From IMG/VR virus record IMGVR_UViG_3300035678_000001: 64,000 nt of DNA; one strand, given 5' to 3'. The notes under the pieces are model-generated. The model was given only the letters and a program-made list of their open reading frames with translations. It did not search any database and was not told the origin of the DNA. Positions 5,127 through 61,652 of the stretch are shown in pieces. Position 1 is the stretch's first letter. Each line of letters opens with the position of its first letter. Origin of the DNA: a virus. Lineage: Duplodnaviria; Heunggongvirae; Uroviricota; Caudoviricetes. Position numbers and translations under genes: made by a program.

Positions 5127-5166
5127 ACTTGCGTCATTCTGTCCCCACCCACATCAAGTGATGCGG

Positions 5167-7997: not shown

Positions 7998-8217
7998 CGG
8001 GCGGCTCCACCGGGATGACGATGATGTGGGCCTCCATCGCCTGCTGCAACTGCTTGCGGATGCGCTCCACGAAGGACACCCGGTGGTCGCGCCACTCCAT
8101 CAGGCAGATGCCGTGGAAGACCGCGCTGGGGCAGTCGTCGTGACCGCAGGGCGCCTCGAAGACGGGGCTGTGCTCGATGATGTTGTCGCAGCGCATACAG
8201 ATCGGTCGGTCCTGCAC
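7990..8217 (-). CDS. Small Zn-finger protein (~75 aa)
   Basis: CMRC...CGHDDC motif. Track ORF trimmed to a GTG at 8217 (TAGTG overlap). Confidence 0.4.
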   Translation of the reverse strand: MQDRPICMRCDNIIEHSPVFEAPCGHDDCPSAVFHGICLMEWRDHRVSFVERIRKQLQQAMEAHIIVIPVEPPDA

Positions 8218-10077: not shown

Positions 10078-10085
10078 CGGTTCTC

Positions 10086-17271: not shown

Positions 17272-17771
17272 TACGAGAACTCGTCGTACTTCTCGCGGTT
17301 GTACGACTGCCACGGCTCGAACAAGCCGCCAGGGTAGAAGCCCCACTCCTGCTTCTTCGCACCGGCCCAGACCAGCGTGATCGTGCCCGGCTTGAGGGTC
17401 GTAATCATGTGGGCGACGTTGCGCGAGGTGCGGTGGATCGACCCCCGCTTCCACGTGCGGGCGCTGATCTCCTCACGACCCAGCAGGTGCTTGCCGATCT
17501 TGCAGTCACACGTCGGCCAGACCTGCTCGGTGTAGCCGCCGCGCACGATGAGCGACTTGAACGAGAACGGGTGATCGTGCGGGTCACGGTCCTCGTCCGG
17601 CATGTAGATGAAGTGCAGGTAGAGCGCGAACCAGGGCGTCTGCAAGATGCGCAGCCGACGCAGGTAGACCCGCTTGATGTCGCGGGCGTCCGGGATGTCG
17701 GCCCACTTCATGAAGTTCCAGCGCGTGCCGCCGATGTACGGGTACTTCACCGGCACGTAGGGGGCGGTCAC
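17271..17771 (-). CDS. Hypothetical protein, ~166 aa
   Basis: GTG at 17771 forms a GTGA overlap with the nrdJ stop. Contains a PDEDRDPHDHPF motif of unknown family. Confidence 0.5.
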   Translation of the reverse strand: MTAPYVPVKYPYIGGTRWNFMKWADIPDARDIKRVYLRRLRILQTPWFALYLHFIYMPDEDRDPHDHPFSFKSLIVRGGYTEQVWPTCDCKIGKHLLGREEISARTWKRGSIHRTSRNVAHMITTLKPGTITLVWAGAKKQEWGFYPGGLFEPWQSYNREKYDEFS

Positions 17772-23718: not shown

Positions 23719-24312
23719 CTACCTGTACGCATCGGCTCGTGTCAAGCCGACACGCGGCCCACAGTTGGGCCATGCGTGTACGCCCTCCGTCCGCAACGTC
23801 TCCTTCGCAACGACGATCTGCTGCCAAGGTGTTGCGTCGTAGGCGTGGTAAGCGAACCGCCCGCCGCCGTGCGCGAGCCATGTCGAGTGGACGAAGTTCG
23901 GTCCACCCTCGAAGTCGTATCCCCGGTCCTTGTAGTGACCGGGCTTGCCGTAGTCCCAGTGCCCCGATGCCTCGCAGTTGACCAAGGCGATCCAGACGGG
24001 GGCGATGCCACCCGTGGAGGGGGTGGCGGCACGTGTCTGGACCGCTGGACGAACGTGATGCTTCGGGTAGAGCGGGGCCGACCGTACACCAGCCCGTGAG
24101 GGCTTCGTCACAGGGGGTGCAACGACACGCCGACGACTCGCCCGAAGCAGCGCAAGTTCACGGTCTGGGCTCTCGACAGCAGAGAGCCCGCTGGCCGTGA
24201 TGGTCGCAGCGGGCTCTGTGCGGGTCGGAGCGGGGTTGGAATGGCTCATGGCGTACGCGGAGCCGGTCAGAGCGATGACGGCGGCTCCTGCGGCCAGCAG
24301 GCGGTGCTTCAC
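23719..24312 (-). CDS. Secreted Rpf-like (resuscitation-promoting-factor) transglycosylase domain protein, 197 aa
   Basis: GTG at 24312 with a GGGAG RBS. Signal peptide VKHRLLAAGAAVIALTGSAYA. C-terminal WIALVNCEASGHWDYG...GYDFEGG...STW...GG...QQIVVAKETL...AWPNCGP matches the Rpf / transglycosylase-like domain consensus. Confidence 0.65.
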   Translation of the reverse strand: MKHRLLAAGAAVIALTGSAYAMSHSNPAPTRTEPAATITASGLSAVESPDRELALLRASRRRVVAPPVTKPSRAGVRSAPLYPKHHVRPAVQTRAATPSTGGIAPVWIALVNCEASGHWDYGKPGHYKDRGYDFEGGPNFVHSTWLAHGGGRFAYHAYDATPWQQIVVAKETLRTEGVHAWPNCGPRVGLTRADAYR

Positions 24313-24332
24313 AGGTGACTCCCAACTGGGAG

Positions 24333-24581
24333 TCAGGCGGTGACTCCCTCGGGGGCGGGGATGGGCTGTGCGTCCGGCTCGGGCGCCCCGCCTCGCGGGT
24401 GCCGCCGACGCAGCGGACGCATTGTTGCACCCTCGGGCACCACGATGCAGTCGCGACACAGGTCTTCGTCGTACTCACCGCTTACGACCGGGCCGTCCAC
24501 ACGGGTGATCCGCGTGGTCACGTCGGCCTTGTCTACGACCTTGCCGCACTTGTCACATCGGTAGCCACGGAACGTGCTCAT
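24333..24581 (-). CDS. Small zinc-ribbon protein (82 aa)
   Basis: CDKCGK...CRDC. The ATG at 24581 forms an ATGA overlap with the 5'-3' exonuclease gene stop (confirmed). Confidence 0.45.
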   Translation of the reverse strand: MSTFRGYRCDKCGKVVDKADVTTRITRVDGPVVSGEYDEDLCRDCIVVPEGATMRPLRRRHPRGGAPEPDAQPIPAPEGVTA

Positions 24582-31534: not shown

Positions 31535-32461
31535 CTACTTGGTGGCGACCGCCAGGCCGGTGGCCGAGCCGCCGAAGCAGGAGAAGCCCGCCGGGAGCGG
31601 GCGGCTGTTGTCCACCGACTCCTTCACGATGTCGAGGCACTTCGACACGAGGATGCCGGGACTGTTGGTGACCGACGCAGCGAGCGCCCGGTTGGCAGCA
31701 GCCTGCGCCTCGTTGGTGAGCAACTGCTGCTTCGCCACGCGGGTCGCGGCGTACTGCTGCTGCAACTGGTTCAACTTGTCCTGGGTGCCCTTGTCGAAGT
31801 TGAAGATGGGGATGAGCACGGAGTTCACGTCGATCCACTTGCCGATGTCGGTGCGCATCTGCTCCTGCACCTTGGCGGCAAGGGCGACGGCACTCGGCTG
31901 GTTGCTGTTGCCGTTCTCGTCCAGCCCCAGCGGGTCATAGCCAGCGAACGCACCGTTGACCGCCGTCTGCAAGTCACGCAGCAGAAGGTTCTTCGTGATG
32001 GCGTCGTTGTCCTTGTAGTTGCGGAACAGGTAGTCCACACCGTCCTCGCGGATCTGCCAGCGCAGCGAGATGTTGACGCAGGCCGTGGCCTGGCGGGCGA
32101 TGCGGACGTTGATGCACGAGCCCTCGGCGTGGCTCTGGGTGCCCTCGCCCTTGTCGCTGGCGTAGGTGTCGGTCTGGATGGCGTCGGAGAGTTCGTGCTT
32201 GACCTGCCACGGAGCCTTGAGGTGGAAGCCGTTGCCGAGGGCTCCGTCCGGCTTGCCGAAGGTGGTGAGCACAGCGACGTTCTTGGTGCCGACCGGAGCG
32301 AGCATCGAGATGACGCCGAACAACAGGGCCAGCAGGCCGAGAACGCCCGTGCCCCACGGCAGACCCTCTCGGGCCTCGCTGCCGGGCTCCGCGAGCCGTG
32401 ACGCTGCGAACAGCACCAGGGCCACCACGATGCAGATGACGAACAGCCAGAAGCAGAGCAC
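31535..32461 (-). CDS. SPFH / band-7 (stomatin-prohibitin-like) membrane protein, 308 aa
   Basis: N-terminal TM helix FWLFVICIVVALVLFAA then VAVLTTFGKPDGALGNGFHLKAPWQVKHELSDAIQTD, typical of the SPFH core. C-terminal coiled-coil-like Gln-rich segment. Confidence 0.6.
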   Translation of the reverse strand: MLCFWLFVICIVVALVLFAASRLAEPGSEAREGLPWGTGVLGLLALLFGVISMLAPVGTKNVAVLTTFGKPDGALGNGFHLKAPWQVKHELSDAIQTDTYASDKGEGTQSHAEGSCINVRIARQATACVNISLRWQIREDGVDYLFRNYKDNDAITKNLLLRDLQTAVNGAFAGYDPLGLDENGNSNQPSAVALAAKVQEQMRTDIGKWIDVNSVLIPIFNFDKGTQDKLNQLQQQYAATRVAKQQLLTNEAQAAANRALAASVTNSPGILVSKCLDIVKESVDNSRPLPAGFSCFGGSATGLAVATK

Positions 32462-32464
32462 GGA

Positions 32465-34444
32465 TCAGTCCTTCGCGTAGAAGTTGCGCACGTCCGCCAG
32501 GTCCATCGTGACCGGGCAGTCCGGCAGGTTGCCGACGATCTTGCGACCGTAGCCCTCGGTGACGAGGCGGCTGTCGAGGATGGCGACGACACCACGGTCC
32601 GTCTTGGACCGGATGAGGCGCCCGAAGCCCTGCAAGAGGGTCAGTGTCATGGCCGGGATGCTCATGCCACCGAAGGACGCCGAGCGACCGGCAGCGCGGT
32701 CGTAGGCGGCGCAGCGGGCGTTGAACATCACGTCGGTGGGGACGGCGAAGGGCATCTTGTCGATGACCACGAGGCGGCACGTCTCGCCAGCGAAGTCCAC
32801 GCCCGTGAAGAAGGACTTGAGGGCGAACAGGACCGAGTGCTCGTCGGCCTGGAAGGCGGCGGCGATCTCCTTGTTGTTGCCGTCCTGGCCCTGCATGAAG
32901 GTGTTGAAGCCCTTGCGCGCCAGCGTCGGCTTGAGCGCCGCGTAGGTGGACTGCATCGAGGCCCGCGAGGTGAACAGCAGCAGGGCGCCACCACCAGCAG
33001 CCTCGACCAGTTCGAGGGTGGTCACGGCGGCGACCTGACGCCACGCCTGGGTCTGCTTCGGGCTCGGGACGTTGCGGCCCGGCAGGTAGAGCAGCGCCTG
33101 GTTGTCGAAGTCGAACGGCGAGCCGACGTTCAGCGTCAGCGGGTCCGGCAGGCCGATCCGGCTCTGGATGTAGGTGAAGTCGCCGCCGACCGAGAGGGTG
33201 GCCGACACGAGGATCGAGGGCACCCGGCTCCACAGCCAGGCGTTCAGCCAGTCACCGACGTTGAGCGGCGCGTTCTTGAAGATGCGGTTGCCCTTGCCGT
33301 CGTCCTCCATCCAGCGGACGAGCGAGTCGTCCTCGGCGGTGATGACCTGGGCGATGCGCTCGGCGTAGCCGTTGGCGCGCTGGGCCAGGATGGTGCGGCG
33401 ACCCTCGGCCTTCTCGTCGCGGGCGCTGACGGCGCTGATCTTCTCGGCCATCTCGCGCAGGGCGTCGATCAACTGGGCGAACGTCTCGAAGTTCTCCGCG
33501 AAGTACCGCAGCGTCATGACGGACTCCGGGCCGAACTTCTCCGGCAGCAGCGACCAGACGGCGGTGAGGGCGTTGGTGACCTCGAAGCCGTGCAGGTCGC
33601 GGTCCTCGCTGCCCTGCTCCCCGGCGAAGTTGCGGACCTCGGTGATGAGGCGACGGACGCCGGACTCGCGGATCGAGTCGCCCAGCGCGTTGGTGGCGTA
33701 GTCCTCGATCTCGTGGGCCTCGTCCAGCACGACGGCCTCGTACTCGCCCAGCATCTGCGCGTGGCCGTCCGTCATCTCGCGGACCTTGAGGTCGGTGAAC
33801 AGCAGCGCGTGGTTGGTGACCACCACGTCGGCAGCCTTGGCGCGGGCCTTGGCAGCCTCCGCGAAGCAGACCGAGCCGAAGGGGCACTCGCGCTTGCCGG
33901 GGCACTCGTCGCTCGTGCTGGCGATGGAGCGCCAGTCCATGTCGGTCATCGGGGTGGAGAAGTGCTGCTTGTCGCCGTCGTGGTTGGGGTCTTCGGCCAA
34001 CTCGGTCAGCACGTCCGCGAGGAACGGCGCCTGGTCGGTGGTGGTGTTCTGCATCTTGTTGACGCAGGCGTAGTTGGAGCGGCCCTTGAGCAGCGCGAAC
34101 GAGAACGGCTTGCCGAGGTTGGCCTGCAAGAACGGCACGTCCTTGTTGGCGTACTGCTCCATCAGGGCGATGGTCGCGGTGGAGACGACGACCTTCTTGC
34201 CCGAGAGGATCGCCGGGATCATCGTGGCAAGGGACTTGCCGGTGCCGCAGCCCGCCTCGGCCAGCAGGTGGCGGCGGTCCTTGAGCGCCTTCTCGACGGC
34301 CTCCGCGAGCGCGTTCTGCTCCTTGCGCTGCTCGTAACCGGGGAGCATCGCCGCCAGGTTGGCCTGCGCGTCGGCCCACGTCTTGGGCTTGATGAGGGCG
34401 GGGGCTTCGGTCGTGGCGGTCATGTCTGGCTCCTCGGTCGTCAT
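32465..34444 (-). CDS. DinG/Rad3-family Fe-S helicase. The track start at 34657 is probably an over-extension.
   Basis: Walker A AGCGTGKSLATM, DEAH box VVLDEAHEIEDY and a Cys4 Fe-S cluster segment. Start set at the ATG 34444 (MTTEEPD, AGGAG RBS) because the upstream 200 bp carry intergenic motif family 2. The 34657 start cannot be excluded. Confidence 0.7.
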   Translation of the reverse strand: MTTEEPDMTATTEAPALIKPKTWADAQANLAAMLPGYEQRKEQNALAEAVEKALKDRRHLLAEAGCGTGKSLATMIPAILSGKKVVVSTATIALMEQYANKDVPFLQANLGKPFSFALLKGRSNYACVNKMQNTTTDQAPFLADVLTELAEDPNHDGDKQHFSTPMTDMDWRSIASTSDECPGKRECPFGSVCFAEAAKARAKAADVVVTNHALLFTDLKVREMTDGHAQMLGEYEAVVLDEAHEIEDYATNALGDSIRESGVRRLITEVRNFAGEQGSEDRDLHGFEVTNALTAVWSLLPEKFGPESVMTLRYFAENFETFAQLIDALREMAEKISAVSARDEKAEGRRTILAQRANGYAERIAQVITAEDDSLVRWMEDDGKGNRIFKNAPLNVGDWLNAWLWSRVPSILVSATLSVGGDFTYIQSRIGLPDPLTLNVGSPFDFDNQALLYLPGRNVPSPKQTQAWRQVAAVTTLELVEAAGGGALLLFTSRASMQSTYAALKPTLARKGFNTFMQGQDGNNKEIAAAFQADEHSVLFALKSFFTGVDFAGETCRLVVIDKMPFAVPTDVMFNARCAAYDRAAGRSASFGGMSIPAMTLTLLQGFGRLIRSKTDRGVVAILDSRLVTEGYGRKIVGNLPDCPVTMDLADVRNFYAKD

Positions 34445-34469
34445 GGGCTGGTCGTTGTGCTCCTGCGAA

Positions 34470-34502
34470 GGTACTACAGAGATGCTTGGAGTGACAAGTA
34501 CC
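34470..34502. promoter_or_regulatory. Motif family 2 copy (GGTACTAC-AGAGATGCTTGGAGTGACA-AGTACC, ends form an inverted repeat)
   Basis: Shares GGTACTACnnGAnATGnTTGG with 35109..35136 and GATGCTTGGAGTG with 29151..29169. Confidence 0.45.
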
Positions 34503-34653
34503 CCTTGGTGCTGCCCCAGGAGGGGCTTGGGGAGCCGACACCGGGCGTGGACCCACACGCCCGTTCTGATGTCGAGAGTGAAGCCGTAGTCGTCACCGTC
34601 AGAGCCCTCACAGGAGCAGGGCGCAGCGTACGGCGGGGTCACGACAGTTTCGG

Positions 34654-35073
34654 TCACCGGCTGGCGTGCTCCCGCTGACCGCGAGCCGCACCGGCCACGC
34701 GCTCCATCGTCCGGCGGTACTGCTCCTGATAGACGATGGTGCTCGGGGTGACGCCACGGGGGATGCCCGGCATGAGGTAGCCCTGCGGGTAGTCGTAGGA
34801 CTGCCCGACCTTCTCGATGCCGCCCGTGCCGTTGATGAACCGCTCGTTCTTGACGGTGCCGCAGCGTCCGCAGACCTCGGTGCGTCCGAGCGCCTCGATC
34901 TTGCGTCGTCCGGTCGTCGCCATCTTGATGACGTGGAAGTCGTTCTCGCGGACCCAGGCGTGTCGCAGACCGGGGTCACGGCAGTCGAGGAACTGGTCGG
35001 TCAGACCCTTGACCTTCTTGGCGACCTCGGCGGACGCCTTGAGTCCTGGCTTCTTGCGGGTGGTGCTCGCCAT
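34654..35073 (-). CDS. Hypothetical protein, 139 aa
   Basis: Track ORF with an ATG start and GGGAG RBS. Contains LDC...CGRCG. Confidence 0.5.
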   Translation of the reverse strand: MASTTRKKPGLKASAEVAKKVKGLTDQFLDCRDPGLRHAWVRENDFHVIKMATTGRRKIEALGRTEVCGRCGTVKNERFINGTGGIEKVGQSYDYPQGYLMPGIPRGVTPSTIVYQEQYRRTMERVAGAARGQREHASR

Positions 35074-35108: not shown

Positions 35109-35136
35109 GGTACTACGAGAATGATTGGTATTGGTC
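35109..35136. promoter_or_regulatory. Motif family 2 copy (GGTACTACGAGAATGATTGGTATTGGTC)
   Basis: Shares GAAGGTACTACnnGAnATGnTTGG with 34470..34502 at a similar distance (~30 nt) from the downstream start codon. Confidence 0.45.
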
Positions 35137-36133
35137 AGCCGAGCGCCTTCTTGTTGCTGGCCCCCAAGGTCACCTCCGTCCCCAGGCTCGCGACAGCACC
35201 GGCCTGCTGACCAGCCTCTCGCCCGCGCCAGTCCCACTGGATCTCGGGCTCCTTGTGGACGCCCAACTTGCGGTCACCCACGTCGGCCTTGAACGCCTCA
35301 CTGACTTCGAGCGCCTTGGACCGGAGCACGAGCCCCGTCTCGTCGGACGAGGAGGCGTGCTGGTCGTCGTACTGCTTGCGGGCCTCGGCCTTGGCAGCCC
35401 ACAGCCGACCGGAGATCCGGGCGATGAAGCCGTCGTAGAAGTTCTGCCGCCAGATGCGGCCATCCACGGCGGTGCGCATCGACTCCTCAATCACCCACTC
35501 GCCGTTCTCGTCCTTGACCCGGACCTTGCGGAACTTCGGCGGCAGCGGGTAGTGCTTGTCGGCGTACTCCTGGCCGAGTTGCTCCACCATCTCGTCGTGG
35601 ACGCTCTGGCTGTCCGCGTAGTAGCGGTGGGTGTTCCACGACTCCTCATCGACCGGCTCACCCCAGGCGCGCTCATCGTTGGGGATCTCCTCGCGGACCC
35701 GCTTGTAGACCCGCTTCTTCTCCTTGTTGAGGCCGCGCTTGAGGCCGTCGTCGGCAGCAGCGACCATCTGGATGACGAGCGAGTTGTAGAGCGCCTCGGC
35801 CACGTCCTGATCGCCGGGGAAGCCGAACGGCCACACCACGGTGTTGTTGCTGGCGATCAGGCACTCAAGGTCGTTGACCGCCGCGATGGCGAGGAACAAC
35901 TGGCACTTCCACTTCGTCGTGGGGCTCAACCGCCACGACCGCTCCTCGATGCGGATGGTCCGCTTCTCGGGGGTCTGCCGCTTGGACTTGTCGGCCTGGT
36001 GCGCCCGAGCGATGGCGAGGTCGATGGCGTTGGCCGAGGCCAACTCCTGGGCCTTCTGCATGAAGGCCGCAGCCTCCTCCGGGGTGCTGGCGTTCTCGGC
36101 CTGGTGCAGCACCTTGGAGATGCGGTCGAGCAT
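35135..36133 (-). CDS. DUF2786-like hypothetical protein (~332 aa)
   Basis: N-terminus MLDRISKVLHQAENASTPEEAAAFMQKAQELASANAID resembles the DUF2786 family by recall. Start taken at the ATG 36133 rather than the overlapping 36172. Confidence 0.5.
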   Translation of the reverse strand: MLDRISKVLHQAENASTPEEAAAFMQKAQELASANAIDLAIARAHQADKSKRQTPEKRTIRIEERSWRLSPTTKWKCQLFLAIAAVNDLECLIASNNTVVWPFGFPGDQDVAEALYNSLVIQMVAAADDGLKRGLNKEKKRVYKRVREEIPNDERAWGEPVDEESWNTHRYYADSQSVHDEMVEQLGQEYADKHYPLPPKFRKVRVKDENGEWVIEESMRTAVDGRIWRQNFYDGFIARISGRLWAAKAEARKQYDDQHASSSDETGLVLRSKALEVSEAFKADVGDRKLGVHKEPEIQWDWRGREAGQQAGAVASLGTEVTLGASNKKALG

Positions 36134-36137
36134 CTTG

Positions 36138-37199
36138 TCAGCCACGGTCGTCGTCCTCGTCGTCGTCCGCACCGGGGATCTGGTCGCGGTAGTTGTCGGT
36201 CACTTCGGTCCAGTTCTGGGAGACGAGCCGGAGCAGGGCGCGCTCGCGCTCCTGCCGCTCGTACGCCTCATCCCAGGTGTCCTCGTTCTTCACGAGGTCG
36301 ATCTCGGCCTGGATCAGGTCTTGCAGGACGCGGGGGTCGAGCGCATCCAACTCCCACGACTCGTCCAGCCCAGTCTCGGCCATGTACGCCTCGAAGCGCG
36401 AGTCGGTTGTCTTGGCCGGGTTCGGAGGCGGGGCGTACTGCTGCACCTGCGCGTAGGACAGCGCGATCCGCTTGAGCCGGAACGGCGCCTGCGTCGGGCC
36501 GACGTTGCCACCGACGATGGTCATGTTGCGGCGCATGTGGTCGTAGATGTCGGCGCTGGTGATGCCGGTCATCCCGGCCATGAACTCGCGCTTCCAGTCG
36601 TTGAGCACGAAGGTCGCCAGGCGCTTCTGCATGTCGCGGGTCATGTCCAGCCCGGACGGGTCGTGGTCACCGATGTGCAGGATGGTCACCCGGTCGCCAC
36701 GGCGCAAGTAGTCACCGACGCGCTGGCTCGCAGCCCACATCTCGCTGGCACTGGTGTAGCCACGGCAGGCGAAGTACGGGACGTTGTTGCCCTCGCAGAC
36801 GGCCTCGATGACGCCGATGCCAGCGTCCTTCTCGATCCACACCTCGACCCGCTGCTTCTGCGTCTTCCACAGGTCGGTGCGGTACTGCTCGGACACCGCG
36901 TTGATGAGGGTGCGCGGCGACTCCCAGTGCGGCTGGCTGACGAGGTTGCGGGTGCGGTCGATCATGTAGTCCCAGTCGAACAGCCCGGCCATGCGGGCGT
37001 CGTTGAGGATGTCTCCGAGCCGCTTGTAGTTCTGCTGCTTGTTGTCCATCAGCCCACGGGCGACGAACTGGTAGTAGACCTGCCGCAGGGTCAGCGAGAG
37101 CCCCTGCTGGGCGTACTCCTCGCAGATCTCGGTGGCCTGGTCCACGACCGCGAGCCGCTCGGCGCCGATCTTGATGTTGGCGTACTTGATGCGGGACAT
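36138..37199 (-). CDS. Spo11 / topoisomerase VI-A-like protein (Mini-A-type: 5Y-CAP-like domain plus Toprim), 353 aa
   Basis: Candidate catalytic Tyr in TLRQVYYQFV (res 42-43, compare the R-[DE]-[IV]-[FY]-Y motif of Spo11/Top6A). Toprim Glu in VEVWIEKDAG (res 123). DxD in ILHIGDHDPSGLDM (res 178/180, compare VDCDPHG). The Y-E spacing of 80 and E-DxD spacing of 55 are consistent with Top6A. ATG start at 37199 confirmed. Confidence 0.55.
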   Translation of the reverse strand: MSRIKYANIKIGAERLAVVDQATEICEEYAQQGLSLTLRQVYYQFVARGLMDNKQQNYKRLGDILNDARMAGLFDWDYMIDRTRNLVSQPHWESPRTLINAVSEQYRTDLWKTQKQRVEVWIEKDAGIGVIEAVCEGNNVPYFACRGYTSASEMWAASQRVGDYLRRGDRVTILHIGDHDPSGLDMTRDMQKRLATFVLNDWKREFMAGMTGITSADIYDHMRRNMTIVGGNVGPTQAPFRLKRIALSYAQVQQYAPPPNPAKTTDSRFEAYMAETGLDESWELDALDPRVLQDLIQAEIDLVKNEDTWDEAYERQERERALLRLVSQNWTEVTDNYRDQIPGADDDEDDDRG

Positions 37200-37528
37200 C
37201 AGACGTTCCTCGTGAAGGTCAGGGGCGGACGGCCAGTGGCCTTGGTGACGTGCAGGGTGTGGCCGCGCTCGGCGTGGTCCTTGCGGTTGCGCCAGCCGCC
37301 GGTCGTGCCGCACTTGCAGACCCAGCGCCACGAGTCGTGGCTCAACGGCATCTCTGCACCCTCGACGGCGGGCCGATGCTCGATGGTCATGTCGTGCCTG
37401 GGGAAGACCAACTCCCACCGCTCGTCGTGGACACCGAAGATGCCACGGCACTCCCACTCGCCGGGCTGCGCGCCGCACTTGGGGCACTCGTGCTTGGCGA
37501 CCTCGGCATGGTTGGTGAAGACGCCCAT
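37199..37528 (-). CDS. Zinc-finger protein, 109 aa
   Basis: CPKCG...C ... CKCG. The ATG at 37528 forms an ATGA overlap with the upstream stop. Confidence 0.5.
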   Translation of the reverse strand: MGVFTNHAEVAKHECPKCGAQPGEWECRGIFGVHDERWELVFPRHDMTIEHRPAVEGAEMPLSHDSWRWVCKCGTTGGWRNRKDHAERGHTLHVTKATGRPPLTFTRNV

Positions 37529-38497: not shown

Positions 38498-38863
38498 TCA
38501 GCCCTGTCCGGGAAGGATCAGGCCGGACGGGCTCGTCATGGGGCCAGGAGCACCACCGTGGCCGTTGGAGCCCGCCAGCATGACGCTGCGCTGCTGCTGC
38601 AAGCCTTCGATGGCGTTGCGCAGTGCGCCCTCCAACTGCTCGGCCTCCGGCGCCAGCGACGGGATCAGCATGGTGTTCGCCAGACCCTGGCCCAGCACCG
38701 GGCTCGGGATGGTCAGGACGACCGCCAGGAGCGGCTGTGGGCGCCCCTCCGGCCCCGGCATGAGCACCAGGGCCACCTCGTAGGCGATGCCCTGTCCTGG
38801 GGCCGCACGGTCGATCACGTCTTCCACGATGGCCGCTACCTGCTCGGTGATCCGCTCGCTCAT
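38498..38863 (-). CDS. Hypothetical protein, 121 aa
   Basis: The ATG at 38863 forms an ATGA overlap with the helicase stop. Confidence 0.45.
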   Translation of the reverse strand: MSERITEQVAAIVEDVIDRAAPGQGIAYEVALVLMPGPEGRPQPLLAVVLTIPSPVLGQGLANTMLIPSLAPEAEQLEGALRNAIEGLQQQRSVMLAGSNGHGGAPGPMTSPSGLILPGQG

Positions 38864-40485
38864 CTGCGCTTGGTCCTCTTTCGGTTGCGGGCGATGCCCA
38901 GGGCAGCGCGCCGGTCGGCTGCGCTGACGAACCTCTCGTCGTCGTACGTGTCGTCCCCGAGCACGATGTCGGCGTCCTCGTTGCGGGTCATCATCGTCTC
39001 GGCCCGGCTCTCCTCGACCGTGCCCAGGGCGATGTAGGACTGGACGGTGAGGATCTTGTCCTTGCCGCCGACGATGCGCGAGCAGCGGTTGATCCGCTGG
39101 ATGTAGGACGTGTGCAGGGTCGGCAACTCGTAGTTGGTCACGTACGTCGCCTCGGGCAGGTTCAAGCCCTTGGAGCCCGCATCCGAGGACACCAGCACCG
39201 CCGGACCCTCCCAGGCCCGGAACGCCTTCCTGGCAGCGTCAGCGACGGCCTCGGTAAGCCCGCCGTGGTTGGTGAAGACCTTGATCTTGTGCTTCTCCAA
39301 GTCGCGGGTCAGCAGCGGCACGATGGACTGGCCGAAGAAGGAGAAGACGACCAACTTGGCGCCCTGCTCGGTGATGACCCCGGCGTGCTCCACGAGCGCC
39401 TCGGCCTTCACCGAGGGCAGCGCGCAGATGTAGTCCCGCCCGAACTCCTCGGTGAGCATCGTCGCCAGCGCGCCAGGGCTGCGGGTGATGGCCTCGGGGT
39501 AGCCAGCGATCTGCCGGAGCACGGTGTAGAGCCCCGGCACGTCCACCGGCTCGCCCGTCTCGTCGTCCCAGCCGAGCGCCTCGACAGCCTCGTAGAACTT
39601 GAGGGTGTCCGGTGGCAGGTCGAACTTGAGGCTCTGCTCGGTCATCTTGGGGAACTGGGCGATCACGTCCTCGTCGGTCTTGCGCTTGCGGTGGATCCAC
39701 GGTCGGACGTACTCCTGATGGAACAGCGGGAGCAAGCCCTTGTGGTACTGCGGGCGCCCGAACGGGTCGCGGCCACGCAGGAAGGTCTTCTCGTACTCCG
39801 CGATGGTCGGCAGCCCCACCGGCTGGCAGATCCGGCGGACGTTGAACACGTCGTCCGGGCCTGTCTCGAACGGCGTGGCCGACAGCGCGATGGTCCGCAC
39901 CCCGGCTGCCTTGCGCATCTGCTTGGTCGCGTGCGCCCACACCCGGTGGGTCTGCGAGGAGCGGTTCTTCAACTTGGTGGCCTCATCGAAGACGATGAGC
40001 ACCCGAGCCCCACGGAAGTGGTCCAGCATCCAGCCGTCCACCATCGTCTTGCCGCGCTTGTTGGGCTCTTGGATCAACTTGCCGAAGTCGGTGCGACCCG
40101 TCTCGTACGTCGTGACGGTGACGGCGTGGTTGGACTCCTTGAGCCGCTTCTCCCGGCCCGGCCCGTGGTGCTTCATGGCCTGCAAGGCGGTGAACTGGTG
40201 GAAGTCGTCCACCCACTCGCCCATCTTGACCCGCTCGCACACGACGATGGTGTGGTCGATCAGCCCCTCGCCCATGAGGAAGGTTGCGACCACCATCGCC
40301 AGGTGCGACTTGCCCAGGCCGGTGTCCCAGATGATCCCGGCGCCGCCGTTGTGGTTGTGCATCTCGGTGAGCACCAGCGAGACGGAGATGCCCTCCATCT
40401 GGAACTCGAACAGACCCCAGGGGGAGAAGTAGAGAGCGCCCTCCGGCCACTGGGGCTCGGAGGGCGCCTCGACTGTCTGTGTCAC
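38860..40485 (-). CDS. SNF2/DEAD-like superfamily II helicase, ~541 aa
   Basis: Motif I GLGKSHLAMVVATFL, motif II VIFDEATKLKN, motif III ALSATPFE and motif VI QRINRCSRIVGG. GTG at 40485 (GTGA overlap). Confidence 0.75.
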   Translation of the reverse strand: MTQTVEAPSEPQWPEGALYFSPWGLFEFQMEGISVSLVLTEMHNHNGGAGIIWDTGLGKSHLAMVVATFLMGEGLIDHTIVVCERVKMGEWVDDFHQFTALQAMKHHGPGREKRLKESNHAVTVTTYETGRTDFGKLIQEPNKRGKTMVDGWMLDHFRGARVLIVFDEATKLKNRSSQTHRVWAHATKQMRKAAGVRTIALSATPFETGPDDVFNVRRICQPVGLPTIAEYEKTFLRGRDPFGRPQYHKGLLPLFHQEYVRPWIHRKRKTDEDVIAQFPKMTEQSLKFDLPPDTLKFYEAVEALGWDDETGEPVDVPGLYTVLRQIAGYPEAITRSPGALATMLTEEFGRDYICALPSVKAEALVEHAGVITEQGAKLVVFSFFGQSIVPLLTRDLEKHKIKVFTNHGGLTEAVADAARKAFRAWEGPAVLVSSDAGSKGLNLPEATYVTNYELPTLHTSYIQRINRCSRIVGGKDKILTVQSYIALGTVEESRAETMMTRNEDADIVLGDDTYDDERFVSAADRRAALGIARNRKRTKRR

Positions 40486-40799
40486 ACCGTGGCGGGAGCC
40501 GCCAGCGCCAACTCCCACTCGACGCCGAACTCACCGTCGCCAGGGAACTCGATGGCGCGGGTGCCGACGACCTCGCCCCGGCACTTGAGGGTCAGAGCGG
40601 GGTCAGGAGCGACGAGGAAGCAGTGCTCCGGGAAGTGCCCGAGGAACTTGATCGAGGACTCGCCCACCAGGCGACAGGCAGGCACCTCGTGCGGCCCCCA
40701 GGTCATCGTCCACGGACCGGAGTCGTGGAGGGCACGCTCGATCTGGCGGGCACGGTAGACCGCCGAAGCCACTGCGAAGTCGAGCACCATGCTGGTCAC
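40482..40799 (-). CDS. Hypothetical protein, 105 aa
   Basis: Track ORF. First gene after the tail module. Confidence 0.45.
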   Translation of the reverse strand: MTSMVLDFAVASAVYRARQIERALHDSGPWTMTWGPHEVPACRLVGESSIKFLGHFPEHCFLVAPDPALTLKCRGEVVGTRAIEFPGDGEFGVEWELALAAPATV

Positions 40800-40893: not shown

Positions 40894-42393
40894 CTAGACG
40901 ACGCCCCAGTTGGCGCCATCAGCAACCACCCGTAGAACCGCATACTGGGCCAAGGTGCGGGAGGCGTCTCCGTCAATGGTTCCGACCAGTGGGGTCACCG
41001 TCAGAGCGGTCGAGTCGAGGTTCTTGATGGTGAACATCCGACCCGTGCGTCCAACCGGCGTGGGGAGAGTGGCGGTCAGGGTGACACCGGAGAAGAAGAC
41101 CACCGAGTCGGCGTTGGTCAGCGTGTAATCAGCCGTCTTGGTGGAGAACGGCTGGGACACTTCCGGCCCGTACTTCTCGGTCGCCAACTCGGTGATCGCA
41201 GCCTGCACATCGGTGGCGGCGACCGACCCTGCTGGTGTGTAGGAGATGGCCGAGGCGTCATGAGCGTCGGTGGTGTCCGCGAGGTGGTCTGACAGCGCCG
41301 TGGCGACCGCCTGGACATCGCTCTCGACTTCCACGACGGCTGCTTGCACGTCAGTGGCCGCGATGGTCCCCACAGGCGCGAAGGAGATCGAGGCAGCCAC
41401 CAGGGCGGCGCCATCGAACAGCAGGCCATCCTGATCCACCCCGACCGTGTGGGCGCCGTCGTCGGCGGCGTACAGCCGCACACGGGTGGCATGGCCGGTC
41501 GGGCTGGACGGCACGACCTCCACCGTGTCGGTCTTGACGACCGTCTCATCAGCGGTGGCCGCAACCGCCCCTGCACCGAGAGCGATGGCCCGAGCAGCCG
41601 TGGCCTGGGCCGCGAAGCCGACCGCTGTGGCGTCTGCCGAAGCCGCGTGCGCTCCGGCACCGAGGGCGGTGGCGCGCAGAGCGGTCGCCAGAGCGACCTC
41701 ACCGACCGCCGTGGTGTCGTTGGCACTGGCCTGGGTCTGGGCACCGAGCGCCGTGGCTCGGAGCCCGCTGGCTACCGAGTCCGAGCCGACCGCGCTGGCT
41801 TGGTTGGCGCTGGCCGCAGCAGCCTGGCCGACCGCTGTGGAGCCGGTGCCACCCGCCGAAGCGGACTCACCCAGAGCCGTGGCTTGGAAGGTCGAGGCGT
41901 CAGCGTTGTGACCCAGCGCAGTGCTCTGGTCGCTCTCTGCGATGGCACCGGGACCGACCTGGGTGGACTCGAAGCCGTCTCCGGCATGGGTCGAGTCGGC
42001 ACCACCGGCTCCGGTGGACGCGATGATCTGGTCGAGGGCGTCCTGCACGTTCTGTGCGGTGATCGACACGCTCGGTGACGTGTAGGGCGTCTGCGCGGCG
42101 GTCTGGAAGTCGCCCTCGGCGGGCTCAAGGACATCCACGTCCTCGAACACGACCTCGGCGTTGCTGCCCAGCGTGACGCCCAGCGTGACGCGCTGCGGGG
42201 TGTCGGTGTAGATCGAGACGACGCCCGTCAGACTCGTGAACGGGTTCGAGAGCGGCGTGCCACCCGCGCTAGACCCGTAGAACGGGTCGGCCAGTGGGGT
42301 GTTCGTCCCAGGACGCAGGACACGGATCGAGGCGCCAGCGAGCGTGTTGCCCGCGTTGTCGGTGATCGTCTTGAGCAGGTGAGCCCGCGCCAT
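40894..42393 (-). CDS. Tail fibre-like protein 1 (499 aa) with a shared N-terminal anchor and ~9 tandem ATALG/TAVG repeats
   Basis: N-terminus MARAHLLKTITDNAGNTLAGASIRVLRPGTNTPLADPFY is paralogous to the N-termini of the 43981..45297 and 45811..47520 genes. Ala/Gly/Thr-rich 13-15-aa repeats. Preceded by the late leader motif. Confidence 0.6.
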   Translation of the reverse strand: MARAHLLKTITDNAGNTLAGASIRVLRPGTNTPLADPFYGSSAGGTPLSNPFTSLTGVVSIYTDTPQRVTLGVTLGSNAEVVFEDVDVLEPAEGDFQTAAQTPYTSPSVSITAQNVQDALDQIIASTGAGGADSTHAGDGFESTQVGPGAIAESDQSTALGHNADASTFQATALGESASAGGTGSTAVGQAAAASANQASAVGSDSVASGLRATALGAQTQASANDTTAVGEVALATALRATALGAGAHAASADATAVGFAAQATAARAIALGAGAVAATADETVVKTDTVEVVPSSPTGHATRVRLYAADDGAHTVGVDQDGLLFDGAALVAASISFAPVGTIAATDVQAAVVEVESDVQAVATALSDHLADTTDAHDASAISYTPAGSVAATDVQAAITELATEKYGPEVSQPFSTKTADYTLTNADSVVFFSGVTLTATLPTPVGRTGRMFTIKNLDSTALTVTPLVGTIDGDASRTLAQYAVLRVVADGANWGVV

Positions 42394-43980: not shown

Positions 43981-45297
43981 TCAACCGATGATGGGGTTGC
44001 ACGCGCTCGACTCGCGGTGCGGCCCGACACGAAGGTGACCCATCGTGTCCACGTAGACATCCCAGCGGTCCCCGTAGTCATCGTGAAGGACAAGCGTCGA
44101 GTGGTAGTTCCCGAAGGGGACGATCTCGACAGCATCAGCAGCAAGCACGCCAGCGTTGCATTCGTCAGACATGGCGGTGTCCCCGATGGCCCAGGCACCG
44201 TTCCCTCTGACCTTTGCACGGCGACCCATCGCCACAGCGGGTCCATTCGAGGAAACCTCGGCCTCCTTGCCAAAGACGATGGAGGAGCCGGACTGGCCGA
44301 TGGCGAGGGCGTCCTTGCCGATCACGATGTTGCCGTTGGGGTCTTGCAGACCAGCCACGCGAGCGCCGATGCTGACCCAGTTGGTGCCGTCGAAGCAGAT
44401 GAAGCGCAGCCAGTCCACGGCGCCACTGGCGATCACCAGATCGGGTGGGTTGATGACCTCGCTGGGCCAGGTGGCGTGACGCCCCACTCTGGTCGCCAAG
44501 TTGGCAACCGGCGTTCCGGGGAGAGTGCCGTCGTCGGTGAACTCGGTGGAGCCACCCATCACGTCAGCGAGGTAGAGGTATGCACCCGGAGTGCTCGGGT
44601 CGTTCCGGTAGACCTTGTAGTGGTCCGCGAACTGGTTGTAGTCCCAAGATGTGTAGACCGATCCGGTCGTGACACCATAGGTGCCAGAAACGTAGCCCTC
44701 GTCGTTCTCGGTGATGGGCGACTCGAAGCCGCCGCTATCCACCGTGGTGACGTAGTAGGTCACGTATCCGTACGTGGACCAGTCGATGCTGCCGCCGTCA
44801 TCGAGAGGGAGCGAGTGGACCCCGGTGGGCGCCTTCGGGAAGGGACCGTCCTGCTCCAAGGCCAGGATGAACTCCTTGCCCACCTCTCCGGGCGGGAAGG
44901 TGAAGGTGCAGTCGTCGGTCATCAGGATCTTGTTGATGTTGGCGATGGTCGGCTCGGGGATGGTCTGTGCCGCACCAGAGGCTGGGACGACCCGCAGGAT
45001 GTCTCCACCACCGCCACCAGTCGCGGGCTCAAGGATGTCCACGTCCTCGTAGAAGACCTCGGTGCCCGAGCCGATCTTGATGCCGAGGCGGACCCGCTGG
45101 GCGTCCTCAACGTAGAAGTCGATCACGCCGTCCGCGTAGGTGTGCGGATTGGATCGGGTGACGCCGCTGGTGTCGTCCACGTACATCGTGTCGCTGATCG
45201 GCGTCGTGGTCCCCGGCTGCAAGACCCGGACGATGGCGTTCGGCAGCACGTTGCCCTGGTTGTCCACCACGGGGCGGTACAGGTGTGCGCGGGTCAT
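43981..45297 (-). CDS. Tail fibre-like protein 2 (438 aa), shared N-terminal anchor
   Basis: MTRAHLYRPVVDNQGNVLPNAIVRVLQPGTTTPISDTMY. Preceded by the late leader motif. Confidence 0.6.
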   Translation of the reverse strand: MTRAHLYRPVVDNQGNVLPNAIVRVLQPGTTTPISDTMYVDDTSGVTRSNPHTYADGVIDFYVEDAQRVRLGIKIGSGTEVFYEDVDILEPATGGGGGDILRVVPASGAAQTIPEPTIANINKILMTDDCTFTFPPGEVGKEFILALEQDGPFPKAPTGVHSLPLDDGGSIDWSTYGYVTYYVTTVDSGGFESPITENDEGYVSGTYGVTTGSVYTSWDYNQFADHYKVYRNDPSTPGAYLYLADVMGGSTEFTDDGTLPGTPVANLATRVGRHATWPSEVINPPDLVIASGAVDWLRFICFDGTNWVSIGARVAGLQDPNGNIVIGKDALAIGQSGSSIVFGKEAEVSSNGPAVAMGRRAKVRGNGAWAIGDTAMSDECNAGVLAADAVEIVPFGNYHSTLVLHDDYGDRWDVYVDTMGHLRVGPHRESSACNPIIG

Positions 45298-45358: not shown

Positions 45359-45814
45359 CTAGAAGGACCGCCACGCCGCAGTGACCGCCCGTGCAACTGG
45401 ACCTTGGCCGAAAGCGGTGGTGGCGTAGACCTCGATGATGAAGACGCTGTACGGCGCATCCGCCCCGGTGTCGGTGTGGGTGTCCATCAAGGTGCCGTAG
45501 CCGGTGTGCTGGTCCTGTGGCCGTGAAGCGGGTGTCAGTTGAGGGAAGTCAGTGGCCGGTCCCGTGCGGGTGGCGACCAGCGAACCTTTGGTCCAGTTGT
45601 CTGGATCGCTGAACGGGAAGTGGCCCGCGCTCGCGTTGTAGACGCTGCTGGTGTAGGAGATGACCGGCGGGCCATACGGCGGATCCCATCCCCAGACCCG
45701 TCGCGCTGCGTCGTTGCTGTCCAACGTCTGGCTTGCGTCGAGGTTGCGGATGATGCCTGGGGCCACGTTCGGCACCCCGGCAGGAACGACGGGAACACAG
45801 ACGACGTACGTCAC
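45359..45814 (-). CDS. Hypothetical tail-associated protein, ~151 aa
   Basis: GTG at 45814 forms a GTGA overlap with the stop of the 569-aa gene (confirmed). Confidence 0.45.
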   Translation of the reverse strand: MTYVVCVPVVPAGVPNVAPGIIRNLDASQTLDSNDAARRVWGWDPPYGPPVISYTSSVYNASAGHFPFSDPDNWTKGSLVATRTGPATDFPQLTPASRPQDQHTGYGTLMDTHTDTGADAPYSVFIIEVYATTAFGQGPVARAVTAAWRSF

Positions 45815-47520
45815 GCGAAGTCCACGCTCATGAGCAGGTCGGAGCCGGGGGTTGTCGAGCCGACCTGGGAGCAGTTGAACTTGAGGATGTCGCCCTTGGT
45901 GCAGGCCACAGAGATCGGGTCGAGCACCCCCAGGCTGACGCCATCGGGGATCGTGATGGTGCCGACATCGTTGGCGTAGGCACCGTTGTTCCACCGCTCG
46001 ACGGTGACGATCATGTCGGCACCGACAGGCGGGGTGTCGAGCCTGCCGACGATGTTGATGGCGTTGGAGTTGCGGGGCACTCGCAGCCCCGGCTTGATGA
46101 GGCTCGGGCTGGTCGAGATGTCACCAGCAGCGATGCCTTCGAGGGTGTAGGCCGTCGCGTTGCCCGTGGTCAGGTAGGCAAAGGTCATGTTGAGGTTGGT
46201 GAGCGTCCCACCCGAGAAGTTGCTCGACCCCGCGAGCAGGTCGTAGCCCGTCTCATCCACAGACAAGATCGCAGTGCCGGTGAACGACAGGGAGGTCAGG
46301 TGGGCGTCCCGGTCGGAGTCGAACTTGATGAGGACACCCACCCCGGCGACGTACGCCTGGGCGTAGCCGTTGTTCCCTGCGGGCCAAGGGAAGTTGTCCC
46401 ACGACCCCGAGACGGTGACCAGCCACGTCCCCGCACCGAGAGCGATGGTCGAGTTGCGGACGCTGTGCGGCACCTCGCCCACGGAGTAGAAGTCGTTCGG
46501 GTTGCTGACAGCCGGGTACGGACTCTGATCTGCGGGCACGGGGCCACCGCTGCACGCGAGATAGCCCGCAGCGCCTGCGACACCAGCGCCGCCTCCCCCA
46601 CCGCCACCGCCAGCAGCCGGGTAGGGCTGACCGTCGAAGGTCAGGCCGGTGGCTGTCACCCCGATGACGCGCTTGGTGCCGTCCACAGTGTCGTGCAGAG
46701 CCAAGGTCGTCGGAGCACCAGACGTGCTGGACGGCACGACCTCCAACTGATCGACCTTGATGACGCCGTGGTCGTCCTCGTCGGTGTGTGCCCCGCCACC
46801 GATGACGATGGAGCGCGAGGTCGGCGTGAAGTCACTCTTGCGAGCGGTGGCCTGCGCACCGATGACGATGTTGTTGCGGATGGTGTTGATGTCGGAGGGG
46901 GCAGGCACCCCCGTGCGGGTGTTGTAGCCGATGGCGATGTCGTACTTGCCGTTGGCCTGACCACCTCGGGTGAGCACCACGGAGTAGGGGCCGGTAGCGA
47001 GCGCCTGTTCACCGAGTGCCGTTGCGCCGATGGCCTGCGCTCGGGCGGTATGTCCGACAGCGGTCGTACCGAAGCCGCTCGCATCAGCCGCAGTGCCGAG
47101 TGCGGTGTTGTTGCCACCGTTGCCGATGCCGCTGTTTCCGATGACCAGCGCCTCGTCGCCAGCGGCATCGACTGGGCGAGCGGGGTTGATGTCACCACCG
47201 ATCACGGTGTCCGTCCCGGTGCCAGCCCGGAAGCCCGCGCCGCCGACCGCGCCCACGTCGATGTCCTCGAAGAAGAACTCCGGGTTGCTGCCGTGGGTCA
47301 CGCCGATGGTGACTCGCCGGGGCGTGTCGAGGTAGATGCTGATGACGCCGTTGGCGAAGACGTGCGGCATCGGGGTGACGGTCGTCGTCGTGTTCGTCAG
47401 GAAGACCTGATCGGTGATCGGGGTCGTTGTCCCAGGCTCGTACAGGGCCACCGAGCAGCCGGTAAGCACGTTGCCCTGTACGTCGAGGACCGGACGCAGA
47501 AGGTGTGCGCGGTCGGTCAT
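45811..47520 (-). CDS. Tail fibre-like protein 3 (569 aa), shared N-terminal anchor, Gly-rich ALG repeats, Gly run GGGGGGGAG
   Basis: MTDRAHLLRPVLDVQGNVLTGCSVALYEPGTTTPITDQVF. Repeats NTALGTAADASGFGTTAVGHTARAQAIGATALG. Confidence 0.6.
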   Translation of the reverse strand: MTDRAHLLRPVLDVQGNVLTGCSVALYEPGTTTPITDQVFLTNTTTTVTPMPHVFANGVISIYLDTPRRVTIGVTHGSNPEFFFEDIDVGAVGGAGFRAGTGTDTVIGGDINPARPVDAAGDEALVIGNSGIGNGGNNTALGTAADASGFGTTAVGHTARAQAIGATALGEQALATGPYSVVLTRGGQANGKYDIAIGYNTRTGVPAPSDINTIRNNIVIGAQATARKSDFTPTSRSIVIGGGAHTDEDDHGVIKVDQLEVVPSSTSGAPTTLALHDTVDGTKRVIGVTATGLTFDGQPYPAAGGGGGGGGAGVAGAAGYLACSGGPVPADQSPYPAVSNPNDFYSVGEVPHSVRNSTIALGAGTWLVTVSGSWDNFPWPAGNNGYAQAYVAGVGVLIKFDSDRDAHLTSLSFTGTAILSVDETGYDLLAGSSNFSGGTLTNLNMTFAYLTTGNATAYTLEGIAAGDISTSPSLIKPGLRVPRNSNAINIVGRLDTPPVGADMIVTVERWNNGAYANDVGTITIPDGVSLGVLDPISVACTKGDILKFNCSQVGSTTPGSDLLMSVDFA

Positions 47521-59909: not shown

Positions 59910-60259
59910 CAGGCAGGCACCATCCCTCGGTTGCTGGTGCCGTGGACCTGCGTCGAACCTCCGGCGAGGGAGTACGCCACGGTGAAGTAGAGGTAGGGGT
60001 CGGTGGCGTCTCGGATGAAGGAGTAGGTCCCGCCGACAGCACTCGTCGTGGTGGCGACCTTGCGAGCATCTACCTGCCGATAGAGGTCCACGGTGGCTCC
60101 CACGACGGGCGCTCCGTTGGTGTCGTAGACGTGCCCGGAGATCGCCTTGGTCGCTCCGCTAATGGTCGTCCCGTAGTCGCCGCCGAGAACGGTGACGGCC
60201 TGGTTCCTGACCTGACGAGAAGCCAGAACCTGCGAGGCAGCGAGGACGAGGGCAGCCAT
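59909..60259 (-). CDS. Small prealbumin-like (CarboxypepD_reg-like) domain protein with an N-terminal hydrophobic segment, 116 aa
   Basis: ISGHVYDTNGAPVVGATVDLYRQVDARKVATTTSAVGGTYSF. The ATG at 60259 forms an ATGA overlap with the stop of paralogue C. Confidence 0.5.
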   Translation of the reverse strand: MAALVLAASQVLASRQVRNQAVTVLGGDYGTTISGATKAISGHVYDTNGAPVVGATVDLYRQVDARKVATTTSAVGGTYSFIRDATDPYLYFTVAYSLAGGSTQVHGTSNRGMVPA

Positions 60260-61263: not shown

Positions 61264-61652
61264 GAAGGCACCAGTCCTCGGTCACTGACCCCGTGGATCT
61301 GGGGGTTGGTCGCTGTGGTGTACGAGATGATGTAGTAGGCCAGCGAGTCGAGAGAGTCTCGCGGGAAGATGTAGTGGCCGTTGATGTCGGCGGTGGTCTG
61401 GGCCACCACCTTGTCGTCGTACTGGCGCACCAACTTCACGATGGAGTTCGGCACGACGACGCCTGCGATGCCATAGATGGTCCCAGCGATGGTCTTGCTG
61501 CCGACGTAGATCGGCAGGTCACCTGGGTTCACAGCAGCCAGGTTCGGACGCGGCGACGTGACTGTGCGGCTCTTGCTGGTGAGCGGCGTGGGCGACAACG
61601 TGACCGTGCGCGTCCGGGTAGCAAGCGGCGTCTGCTGGGTGTTGTACGCCAT
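61260..61652 (-). CDS. Small prealbumin-like (CarboxypepD_reg-like) domain protein, 130 aa
   Basis: GTIYGIAGVVVPNSIVKLVRQYDDKVVAQTTADINGHYIF. The ATG at 61652 forms an ATGA overlap with the stop of paralogue B (confirmed). Confidence 0.5.
   Translation of the reverse strand: MAYNTQQTPLATRTRTVTLSPTPLTSKSRTVTSPRPNLAAVNPGDLPIYVGSKTIAGTIYGIAGVVVPNSIVKLVRQYDDKVVAQTTADINGHYIFPRDSLDSLAYYIISYTTATNPQIHGVSDRGLVPS

Follow-up and report, generated by a model that had tools for sequence, protein, structure and literature searches.

A Mini-A-type homologue of the topoisomerase VI A subunit and Spo11 encoded on a ~154 kb metagenomic phage contig

The product of a 353-codon phage gene on the minus strand of the window analysed here, a stretch of 64,000 nucleotides from IMG/VR record IMGVR_UViG_3300035678_000001, is almost certainly a Mini-A protein and as such belongs to the third, virus-borne subfamily of homologues of the type IIB topoisomerase A subunit. 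The subfamily was defined by Takahashi et al. [quoted passage not shown] In Topo VIII the corresponding box is RVELNAM, and that of Topo VI is R/KxExxA/S (PMC7671362). [quoted passage not shown] The family has been known since 2019 and is annotated in phage databases; the gene is a fresh example of it, not a new system. A homodimeric, Mg-dependent tyrosine cleavage enzyme that works without an ATPase is, in our judgement, the most plausible overall account of the protein, and one that we hold to be somewhat better than an even bet.

The gene and its family

The gene starts with the ATG at 37199, 7 nt downstream of a GAGGA Shine-Dalgarno sequence, and ends with the TGA at 36138–36140 (Table 1). 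The first-pass annotation of this DNA, made from the letters alone, had called the same reading frame, without giving its strand. An identical protein is present on two ~154 kb metagenomic contigs. The initiation codon overlaps the TGA of the upstream 109-aa Cys-rich reading frame, and at its 3' end the gene shares 8 nt with the following DUF2786/DUF7168 gene, which starts with GTG; these overlapping starts and stops make the three genes look translationally coupled.

Table 1. Positions of the Mini-A gene, its protein features and the neighbouring genes in the 64,000-nt window.
Feature	Coordinates	Strand	Description or basis
DinG/XPD-type helicase	32465..34657	-	Pfam Helicase_C_2, DEAD, DEAD_2
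DUF2786 + DUF7168 protein, 336 aa from GTG at 36145	35135..36145	-	Pfam and PHROG matches, gene call
Mini-A gene, 353 aa	36138..37199	-	winged-helix 5Y-CAP-like + Toprim + C-terminal helices + acidic tail
N-terminal domain, residues 1-112, 5Y-CAP-like winged helix	36864..37199	-	
R39-Q-V-Y42-Y43 motif	37071..37085	-	Y43, predicted catalytic tyrosine; R39, conserved and putatively DNA-contacting arginine
Toprim acidic motif VWIEKDAG (E123, K124)	36819..36842	-	E123 and K124 in 150/150 representatives
Toprim metal-binding motif G-D178-H-D180-P-S-G183 (DxDxxG)	36651..36671	-	D178, D180 and G183 in 150/150 representatives
Variable helical insertion in Toprim, ~40 residues (~198-240)	36480..36608	-	alignment and model
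PPPNPAK motif, residues 257-263, invariant	36411..36431	-	family conservation
T2BI box S-W-E-L-D-A-L, residues 281-287	36339..36359	-	Mini-A-specific signature, xWELDAL in PMC7671362
109-aa Cys-rich ORF (CPKC ... CKC), upstream of Mini-A	37199..37528	-	no Pfam or PHROG match; homologues in 0/80 loci
SNF2-family helicase	38860..40518	-	Pfam SNF2-rel_dom, Helicase_C

Among the PHROGs, the protein matches phrog_6247, annotated as 'DNA topoisomerase', over its full length (E=2e-99), which, taken together with the motifs and the WELDAL box, bears out the Mini-A-type, Topo VI-A/Spo11-like identity that had been proposed from the letters. As far as the sequence goes, all the traits that define the subfamily are found: a make-up limited to the second half of 5Y-CAP and Toprim, the catalytic motifs, the xWELDAL signature as S281-W-E-L-D-A-L287, and a viral origin, documented by the terminase, baseplate J, minor tail, tail-fibre-like, endolysin and phage-type replication genes of the window. 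Pfam has no model for the Mini-A family, and its sole match to the query is a sub-threshold one to TP6A_N (PF04406; E=0.12, 12.6 bits, below the cutoff of 26) that spans residues 17–47, the region of the tyrosine; PF21180 (TOP6A-Spo11_Toprim) was unmatched, and NCBIfam returned two sub-threshold matches only.

The family is very large. At least 7,994 homologues were found at E<1e-5, and a family profile retrieved 9,770 clusters (50% identity) from 1.84 billion representative sequences with a threshold of E<=1e-3; when this was tightened to E<=1e-30, 2,005 were left. Because of these numbers and the near-total conservation of the residues concerned, the motif set is, judged at the level of sequence, far beyond chance. 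Homologues with 36–44% identity were located by tblastn in 83 cultured phage genomes, whose hosts include Pseudomonas, Xylella, Salmonella, Flavobacterium, Cellulophaga, Roseobacter, Rhodobacter, Microbacterium and Curtobacterium, among others; Listeria phage LWP01 (38% identity) and Pseudanabaena phage Pam3 are named examples. Many of these homologues already carry the annotation 'DNA topoisomerase' or 'DNA topoisomerase VI', and those of Listeria, Pseudomonas and Salmonella phages come from the same phage groups as in the defining paper (PMC7671362). The suggestion of the first-pass annotation that the gene might belong to a possibly new DNA-processing module does not hold in this respect, the family having been described, collected under its own PHROG and annotated in many RefSeq phages.

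The query shares with known Mini-A proteins the 5Y-CAP-like and Toprim domains, the RxxYY, E, DxDxxG and xWELDAL motifs, the viral setting and the lack of a recognisable Bergerat-fold partner nearby, and differs from them in three respects. It is longer (353 versus ~300 aa), because of the helical insertion in Toprim and the acidic C-terminal tail; in the alignment the insertion is present in the query's subclade and missing from phage Mini-A proteins of ~290 aa, and the model places helices at 181–209 and 215–228 in this region. It is encoded by a ~154 kb, 66% GC, actinobacterial-type, myovirus-like phage without a close cultured relative. Finally, in its subclade Mini-A appears to be translationally coupled to a DUF2786/DUF7168 gene.

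The plasmid-borne Topo VIII is the other mobile-element system that calls for comparison, as it too has A-type catalytic residues and no N-terminal part of 5Y-CAP. Topo VIII, however, has a B moiety with GHKL and transducer domains, either fused or as a paired protein, whereas none was found for the query; its box is RVELNAM, as against SWELDAL here; and the conserved Arg(-Pro) found three residues past the tyrosine in Topo VIII (PMC7671362) is replaced by V46.

Conserved motifs and the candidate active site

The three catalytic motifs of the Topo VI-A/Spo11 core that had been picked out in the first pass are all present with the spacings reported then, 80 residues from Y43 to E123 and 55 from E123 to D178; the arginine, given there as residue 40, is residue 39. 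Conservation was assessed over 150 representatives that are mutually no more than 50% identical. R39 and Y43 are retained in all 147 representatives that cover the site, and E123, K124, D178, D180 and G183 in 150 of 150. Position 42 varies between Y, F and H, so that Y43 is the candidate catalytic residue. R39-Q-V-Y42-Y43 conforms to the RxxY/FY motif that Topo VI and Mini-A share (PMC7671362). The W, E, L, D, A and L positions of the WELDAL box are each conserved in 138–148 of the 150. This box and the invariant PPPNPAK motif do not figure in the first-pass annotation.

Inteins typically lodge in the catalytic motifs of DNA-metabolism enzymes. Two members of the family (P0241, whose Toprim part has 55% identity to that of the query, and P0309, with 44%) contain inteins of the Hint/LAGLIDADG type, inserted at a common site between residues 119 and 120 and hence 3–4 residues ahead of the Toprim glutamate E123. 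The invariance among the representatives and the placement of the inteins suggest that R39, Y43, E123, D178 and D180 are under selection. The same data bear on the proposition that the protein is a non-catalytic DNA-binding or regulatory factor, for which one may cite the winged helix that forms its N-terminal domain and the annotation 'DNA binding protein' given to homologues in Microbacterium and Curtobacterium phages. With the full metal-binding and tyrosine sets invariant over the 150 representatives and the inteins targeting the Toprim motif, we regard this as very improbable, and a catalytic function is preferred.

Fold and relation to Top6A and Spo11

A structure model was computed with AlphaFold2 from an alignment of 52 sequences (pLDDT 91, pTM 0.86). 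In a Foldseek search of the PDB the first match was Top6A (1d3y_B; probability 0.94, E=0.02), and the structure nearest to the N-terminal domain is the winged helix of the Top6A CAP. The model has the winged-helix CAP and Toprim folds that characterize Topo VI-A and Spo11, and the two domains thus each, independently, point to a Top6A architecture. The arrangement of the domains relative to one another appears to differ from that in 1d3y, because the global TM-score to this structure is low, at just 0.30–0.36.

At the level of sequence profiles, Mini-A is without significant similarity to Topo VI-A and Spo11 of known structure (1D3Y, 2ZBK, 2Q2E, 8URU). Genuine Top6A proteins carry PF04406, PF20768 and PF21180; among 41 diverse Mini-A members, TP6A_N was matched weakly in nine and the Toprim-like DUF2399 in four. 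The family profile found no Top6A among the PDB sequences with hmmsearch, and phmmer returned nothing relevant. An hhalign comparison with 25 archaeal Top6A sequences was not significant (E=0.064, probability <1%) and was confined to the DxD region, where the aligned segment pairs with D214/D216 of the Top6A alignment. Since these profile searches are not significant, the kinship with Top6A rests on the fold, the order of the motifs and the published analysis. Further differences from Topo VI-A and Spo11 are the shorter distance from tyrosine to glutamate (80 residues in the query, 96 in the Top6A alignment) and the missing N-terminal half of 5Y-CAP, which binds the B subunit.

The fold and the motifs also have to be set against those of hydrolytic Toprim nucleases such as JetD/MksG or OLD. 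A Mini-A of this type would form no covalent tyrosine intermediate, might for example degrade host DNA or process phage concatemers, and would use its winged helix for DNA binding only. We consider this improbable. Tyr43 and the arginine preceding it are invariant in 147 of 147 sequences, which would be unexpected if they were dispensable, and the nearest relative of the N-terminal domain is the Top6A CAP. The first-pass annotation had proposed that profiles of TP6A_N and DUF2220/JetD be used to separate these families; the outcome speaks against JetD, since, with TP6A_N below threshold, PADLOC gave no match of any kind for the query and Pfam no DUF2220 match in the query or 41 relatives. A JetD-like identity was rejected on these grounds and on that of the invariant candidate catalytic tyrosine. 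Mini-A further differs from the JetD/MksG subunits of the Wadjet/MksBEFG systems in that no SMC-like genes of the JetABC kind lie alongside it; the window proteins that were scanned yielded no SMC-like domain. A tyrosine-dependent enzyme of the Topo VI-A/Spo11 lineage remains the preferred reading.

Genomic surroundings

The window has a GC content of 66%, and virtually all of its genes lie on the minus strand. It is rich in replication and recombination genes: besides a terminase it encodes a Cas4/RecE-like exonuclease, RecA, a DnaE-type polymerase and an SSB-like protein, and there are also genes for DnaG, a class II ribonucleotide reductase, DnaB, an IstB/DnaC-like loader, FEN, ThyX and a transglycosylase. 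These are followed by an HNH-like protein, an endolysin with CHAP and PG-binding domains, an SPFH protein and the DinG-type helicase; then by a 139-aa reading frame, the DUF2786/DUF7168 gene, Mini-A, several small reading frames and the SNF2 helicase; and then by tail-fibre-like proteins with a YadA head, a minor tail protein and baseplate J. The immediate surroundings are as first described, with the Cys-rich frame upstream, DUF2786 downstream and the DinG and SNF2 helicases in the same block. Rhodococcus phage Finch and Mycobacterium phages of ~155 kb have DnaE proteins with only ~30% identity to the one encoded here, and megablast with 6.6 kb of the sequence gave no match. The composition suggests that the host is probably an actinobacterium.

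In Pfam searches that covered most of the predicted proteins of the 64-kb window, neither GHKL nor HATPase nor Topo VI-B domains came up, in agreement with the earlier reading that no B subunit is encoded nearby; in this, too, Mini-A is set apart from Topo VI-A and Spo11, no B subunit or ATPase having been found for it among the proteins scanned.

The conservation of the neighbourhood was examined in 80 IMG/VR loci that encode relatives 44–58% identical to the query, with up to 8 kb of flanking sequence on each side, by tblastn of all 13 window neighbours. Homologues of DinG near Mini-A were found in none of the 80 loci and homologues of SNF2 in one; the 109-aa Cys-rich frame and the other small reading frames were likewise absent from all 80, and DUF2786 was present in four. 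When the reading frames of all 81 loci, the window included, were clustered all against all, the best non-overlapping neighbour cluster occurred in just 12. There is, at the sensitivity of BLAST, no family-wide partner. The proposal that the two helicases are functional partners of Mini-A in a DNA-processing module was accordingly abandoned. A weak SNF2 match lies 2.5 kb downstream in locus L087.

In Pam3 and in Xylella phage Salvo, Mini-A adjoins genes for aGPT-Pplase, a kinase and MazG. A link to thymidine hypermodification was considered and dropped, as the Pam3 and Salvo genes are missing from the window and the 80 loci, except that the 'cysteine dioxygenase' of Salvo gave two weak partial matches, of which one lies in the window at a distance of 18 kb.

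The DUF2786/DUF7168 gene has a different distribution. In the closest subclade (at least 52% identity) it lies directly downstream of Mini-A in seven of eight loci, namely in the window and in L002, L003, L004, L086, L087 and L088, the eighth locus being L089. An iterated DUF2786 HMM, which found the gene in just 6 of 81 loci, failed to carry the association beyond this group, and no DUF2786 gene stands next to Mini-A in four cultured-phage loci or in the other IMG/VR loci. The pairing of the two genes is real and clade-specific; as a family-wide partner, DUF2786 was rejected. The literature searched contained no paper about the function of DUF2786, only passing mentions.

These observations are central to the idea that Mini-A is the cleaving subunit of a two-component type IIB topoisomerase, whose second component, an ATPase or 'Mini-B', would have diverged beyond recognition, lie in another part of the ~154 kb genome or be supplied by the host, with the DUF2786/DUF7168 protein as a possible partner or regulator in the subclade. 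The idea draws on the position of that gene, which overlaps the Mini-A stop, on the fact that the defining paper leaves a non-canonical Mini-B open (PMC7671362), and on the extent of the window, 64 kb of a ~154 kb contig. Weighing against it are the absence of DUF2786 beside Mini-A in the remaining IMG/VR loci and the cultured phages, which bars it as a family-wide partner; the lack of any ATPase domain in the DUF2786 protein according to Pfam; the failure of any neighbour family to recur in more than 12 of 81 loci; and the missing 5Y-CAP part, the one through which Top6B is bound (PMC7671362). On balance a two-component enzyme seems unlikely, about as much so as the hydrolytic nuclease. The invariant Tyr/Arg pair and the want of a conserved neighbour weaken all three alternatives considered here.

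Proposed mechanism and biological role

For Mini-A as an enzyme acting without a B subunit, the following scheme can be put forward by analogy with Topo VI and Spo11. In those enzymes the two protomers build hybrid active sites at their interface: the tyrosine of one acts together with the Toprim metal site of its partner, and the glutamate of the T2BI box contacts the arginine and the tyrosine across that interface (PMC7671362; PMC12871325). Two copies of Mini-A would dimerise to create such hybrid sites, in which Y43 of one protomer would attack the DNA backbone with the assistance of Mg2+ held by E123, D178 and D180 of the other, and the products would be breaks with 5'-phosphotyrosyl linkages, as with Topo VI and Spo11. 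The WELDAL box would probably keep the tyrosine capped until the enzyme engages DNA or a partner. As the active site is shared between protomers in Top6A and Spo11, the distance between tyrosine and metal site in a monomer model is not a valid criterion for refuting the scheme, although the first-pass annotation had offered it as one. We think it rather probable that Mini-A employs tyrosine- and Mg-dependent cleavage chemistry of this kind, and catalysis by an A subunit alone has precedent. Because Mini-A has no ATPase gate, a topoisomerase performing ATP-driven strand passage would be unlikely.

What Mini-A does for the phage can be sketched only tentatively, and any one specific role is unlikely to be the right one. 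It may break and reseal DNA, or make breaks in the manner of Spo11, with the phage or host genome as its substrate in the course of replication or recombination; that the phage has a RecA, an exonuclease and an SSB of its own is compatible with either activity. A more particular version, which we rate as unlikely and slightly below the two-component enzyme in general, is that of a stand-alone Spo11-like double-strand-break enzyme that initiates recombination-dependent replication or breaks host DNA, with the DUF2786/DUF7168 protein of this actinophage subclade as its regulatory partner, a non-GHKL 'Mini-B'; if this were true, a virus would be using a minimal form of the meiotic break machinery, ancestor-like and devoid of an ATPase. 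No report of a biochemical assay of any Mini-A protein was found in the literature searched, and a review of December 2024 describes the role of such enzymes as an unexplored topic.

Implications

The present gene contributes a high-confidence structure model of an actinophage-type variant of Mini-A, evidence against the neighbouring helicases as conserved partners and, as a lead, the clade-specific and apparently translationally coupled DUF2786/DUF7168 gene. Its interest stems not from the single instance but from the function of the family, a branch of the Topo VI-A/Spo11 lineage that is specific to viruses and, with ~10,000 clusters at 50% identity, very large. How an enzyme that consists of an A subunit only acts on DNA bears on the origin of type IIB topoisomerases and of Spo11, and on the ways in which phages manage and break DNA.

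Inteins and insertions in Mini-A

Two homologues of the window's Mini-A protein, P0241 (712 aa) and P0309 (677 aa), contain inteins at one identical position, as recognized by matches to Hint_2, LAGLIDADG_3 and Intein_splicing. The site corresponds to residues 119/120 of the window Mini-A (nt ~36840-36845) and lies 3-4 residues upstream of the invariant Toprim glutamate; in both homologues '...RVE' precedes the junction, cysteine is residue 1 of the intein, and 'CW[VI]EKDA' follows.

Separately, lineage-specific insertions in Mini-A concentrate at two places in the alignment of these proteins (columns ~60-83 and ~236-296). The insertion in the Toprim domain is present in the window protein, and the second spot, after the YY helix, is filled in, for example, loci L047, L071 and L080 and is empty in the window protein.

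Gene neighborhoods of Mini-A

A DUF2786/DUF7168 gene is found directly 3' of Mini-A in seven of the eight closest loci (the window, L002, L003, L004, L086, L087 and L088), and it is essentially missing next to more distant Mini-A genes. Where the pair occurs, the stop codon of Mini-A and the start codon of its neighbor often overlap. Five of the papers searched mention DUF2786, once each, and none of the five deals with its function.

The Mini-A neighbors in two cultured phages, Pam3 and Salvo, are annotated as aGPT-Pplase1/2, radical-SAM 'photolyase', PLP enzyme, kinase and MazG, a set typical of thymidine hypermodification clusters. Neither the window nor any of the 80 related IMG/VR loci (up to 8 kb of flank on each side) contains these hypermodification-like genes, except that the Salvo 'cysteine dioxygenase' has a weak, partial match in L065 and another at 17508-17675 of the window, 18 kb from Mini-A.

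Features of the window and of the two cultured-phage loci
Feature	Coordinates	Strand	Remarks
Transglycosylase-like (PF06737) domain protein	23719-24459	-	
SPFH/Band-7 membrane protein	31535-32461	-	phrog_200; between DinG helicase and endolysin genes
DUF2786/DUF7168 gene	35135-36145	-	directly downstream of Mini-A
Toprim-domain insertion	36480-36608	-	~40 residues, after DxD helix
Tail-fibre-like protein	40894-42393	-	similar N-terminal stretch in all three
Tail-fibre-like protein	43981-45297	-	
Tail-fibre-like protein	45811-47520	-	
Tandem paralogue	60259-61263	-	all three are of 314-334 aa and have motifs in common
Tandem paralogue	61652-62596	-	
Tandem paralogue	62597-63547	-	
Pam3 locus (L084; Pseudanabaena phage)	5971-12798		Mini-A within/beside hypermodification-like genes
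Salvo locus (L083; Xylella phage)	1042-6882		Mini-A within/beside hypermodification-like genes

Gene order and paralogous families

Essentially all predicted genes of the window (1-64000) are carried on the minus strand, with the replication, lysis and tail modules sharing one transcriptional direction, and no integrase domain occurs among the Pfam matches returned for the proteins scanned. The tandem paralogues share the motifs GLVQTADTGQI... and GYEI(W/Y)RF.D.LQA.RP(V/I)FIKV.YG and end in LLMR(Y/F)E or LLRWE; the one member scanned against Pfam (60259-61263) gave no match. The stretch common to the tail-fibre-like proteins reads M..RAHL...D.(A/Q)GN.L....(I/V).(V/A)L.PGT.TP..D, and two of the three contain YadA-head repeats. 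These three proteins look like paralogous fibres that have a common anchor and differing distal parts.
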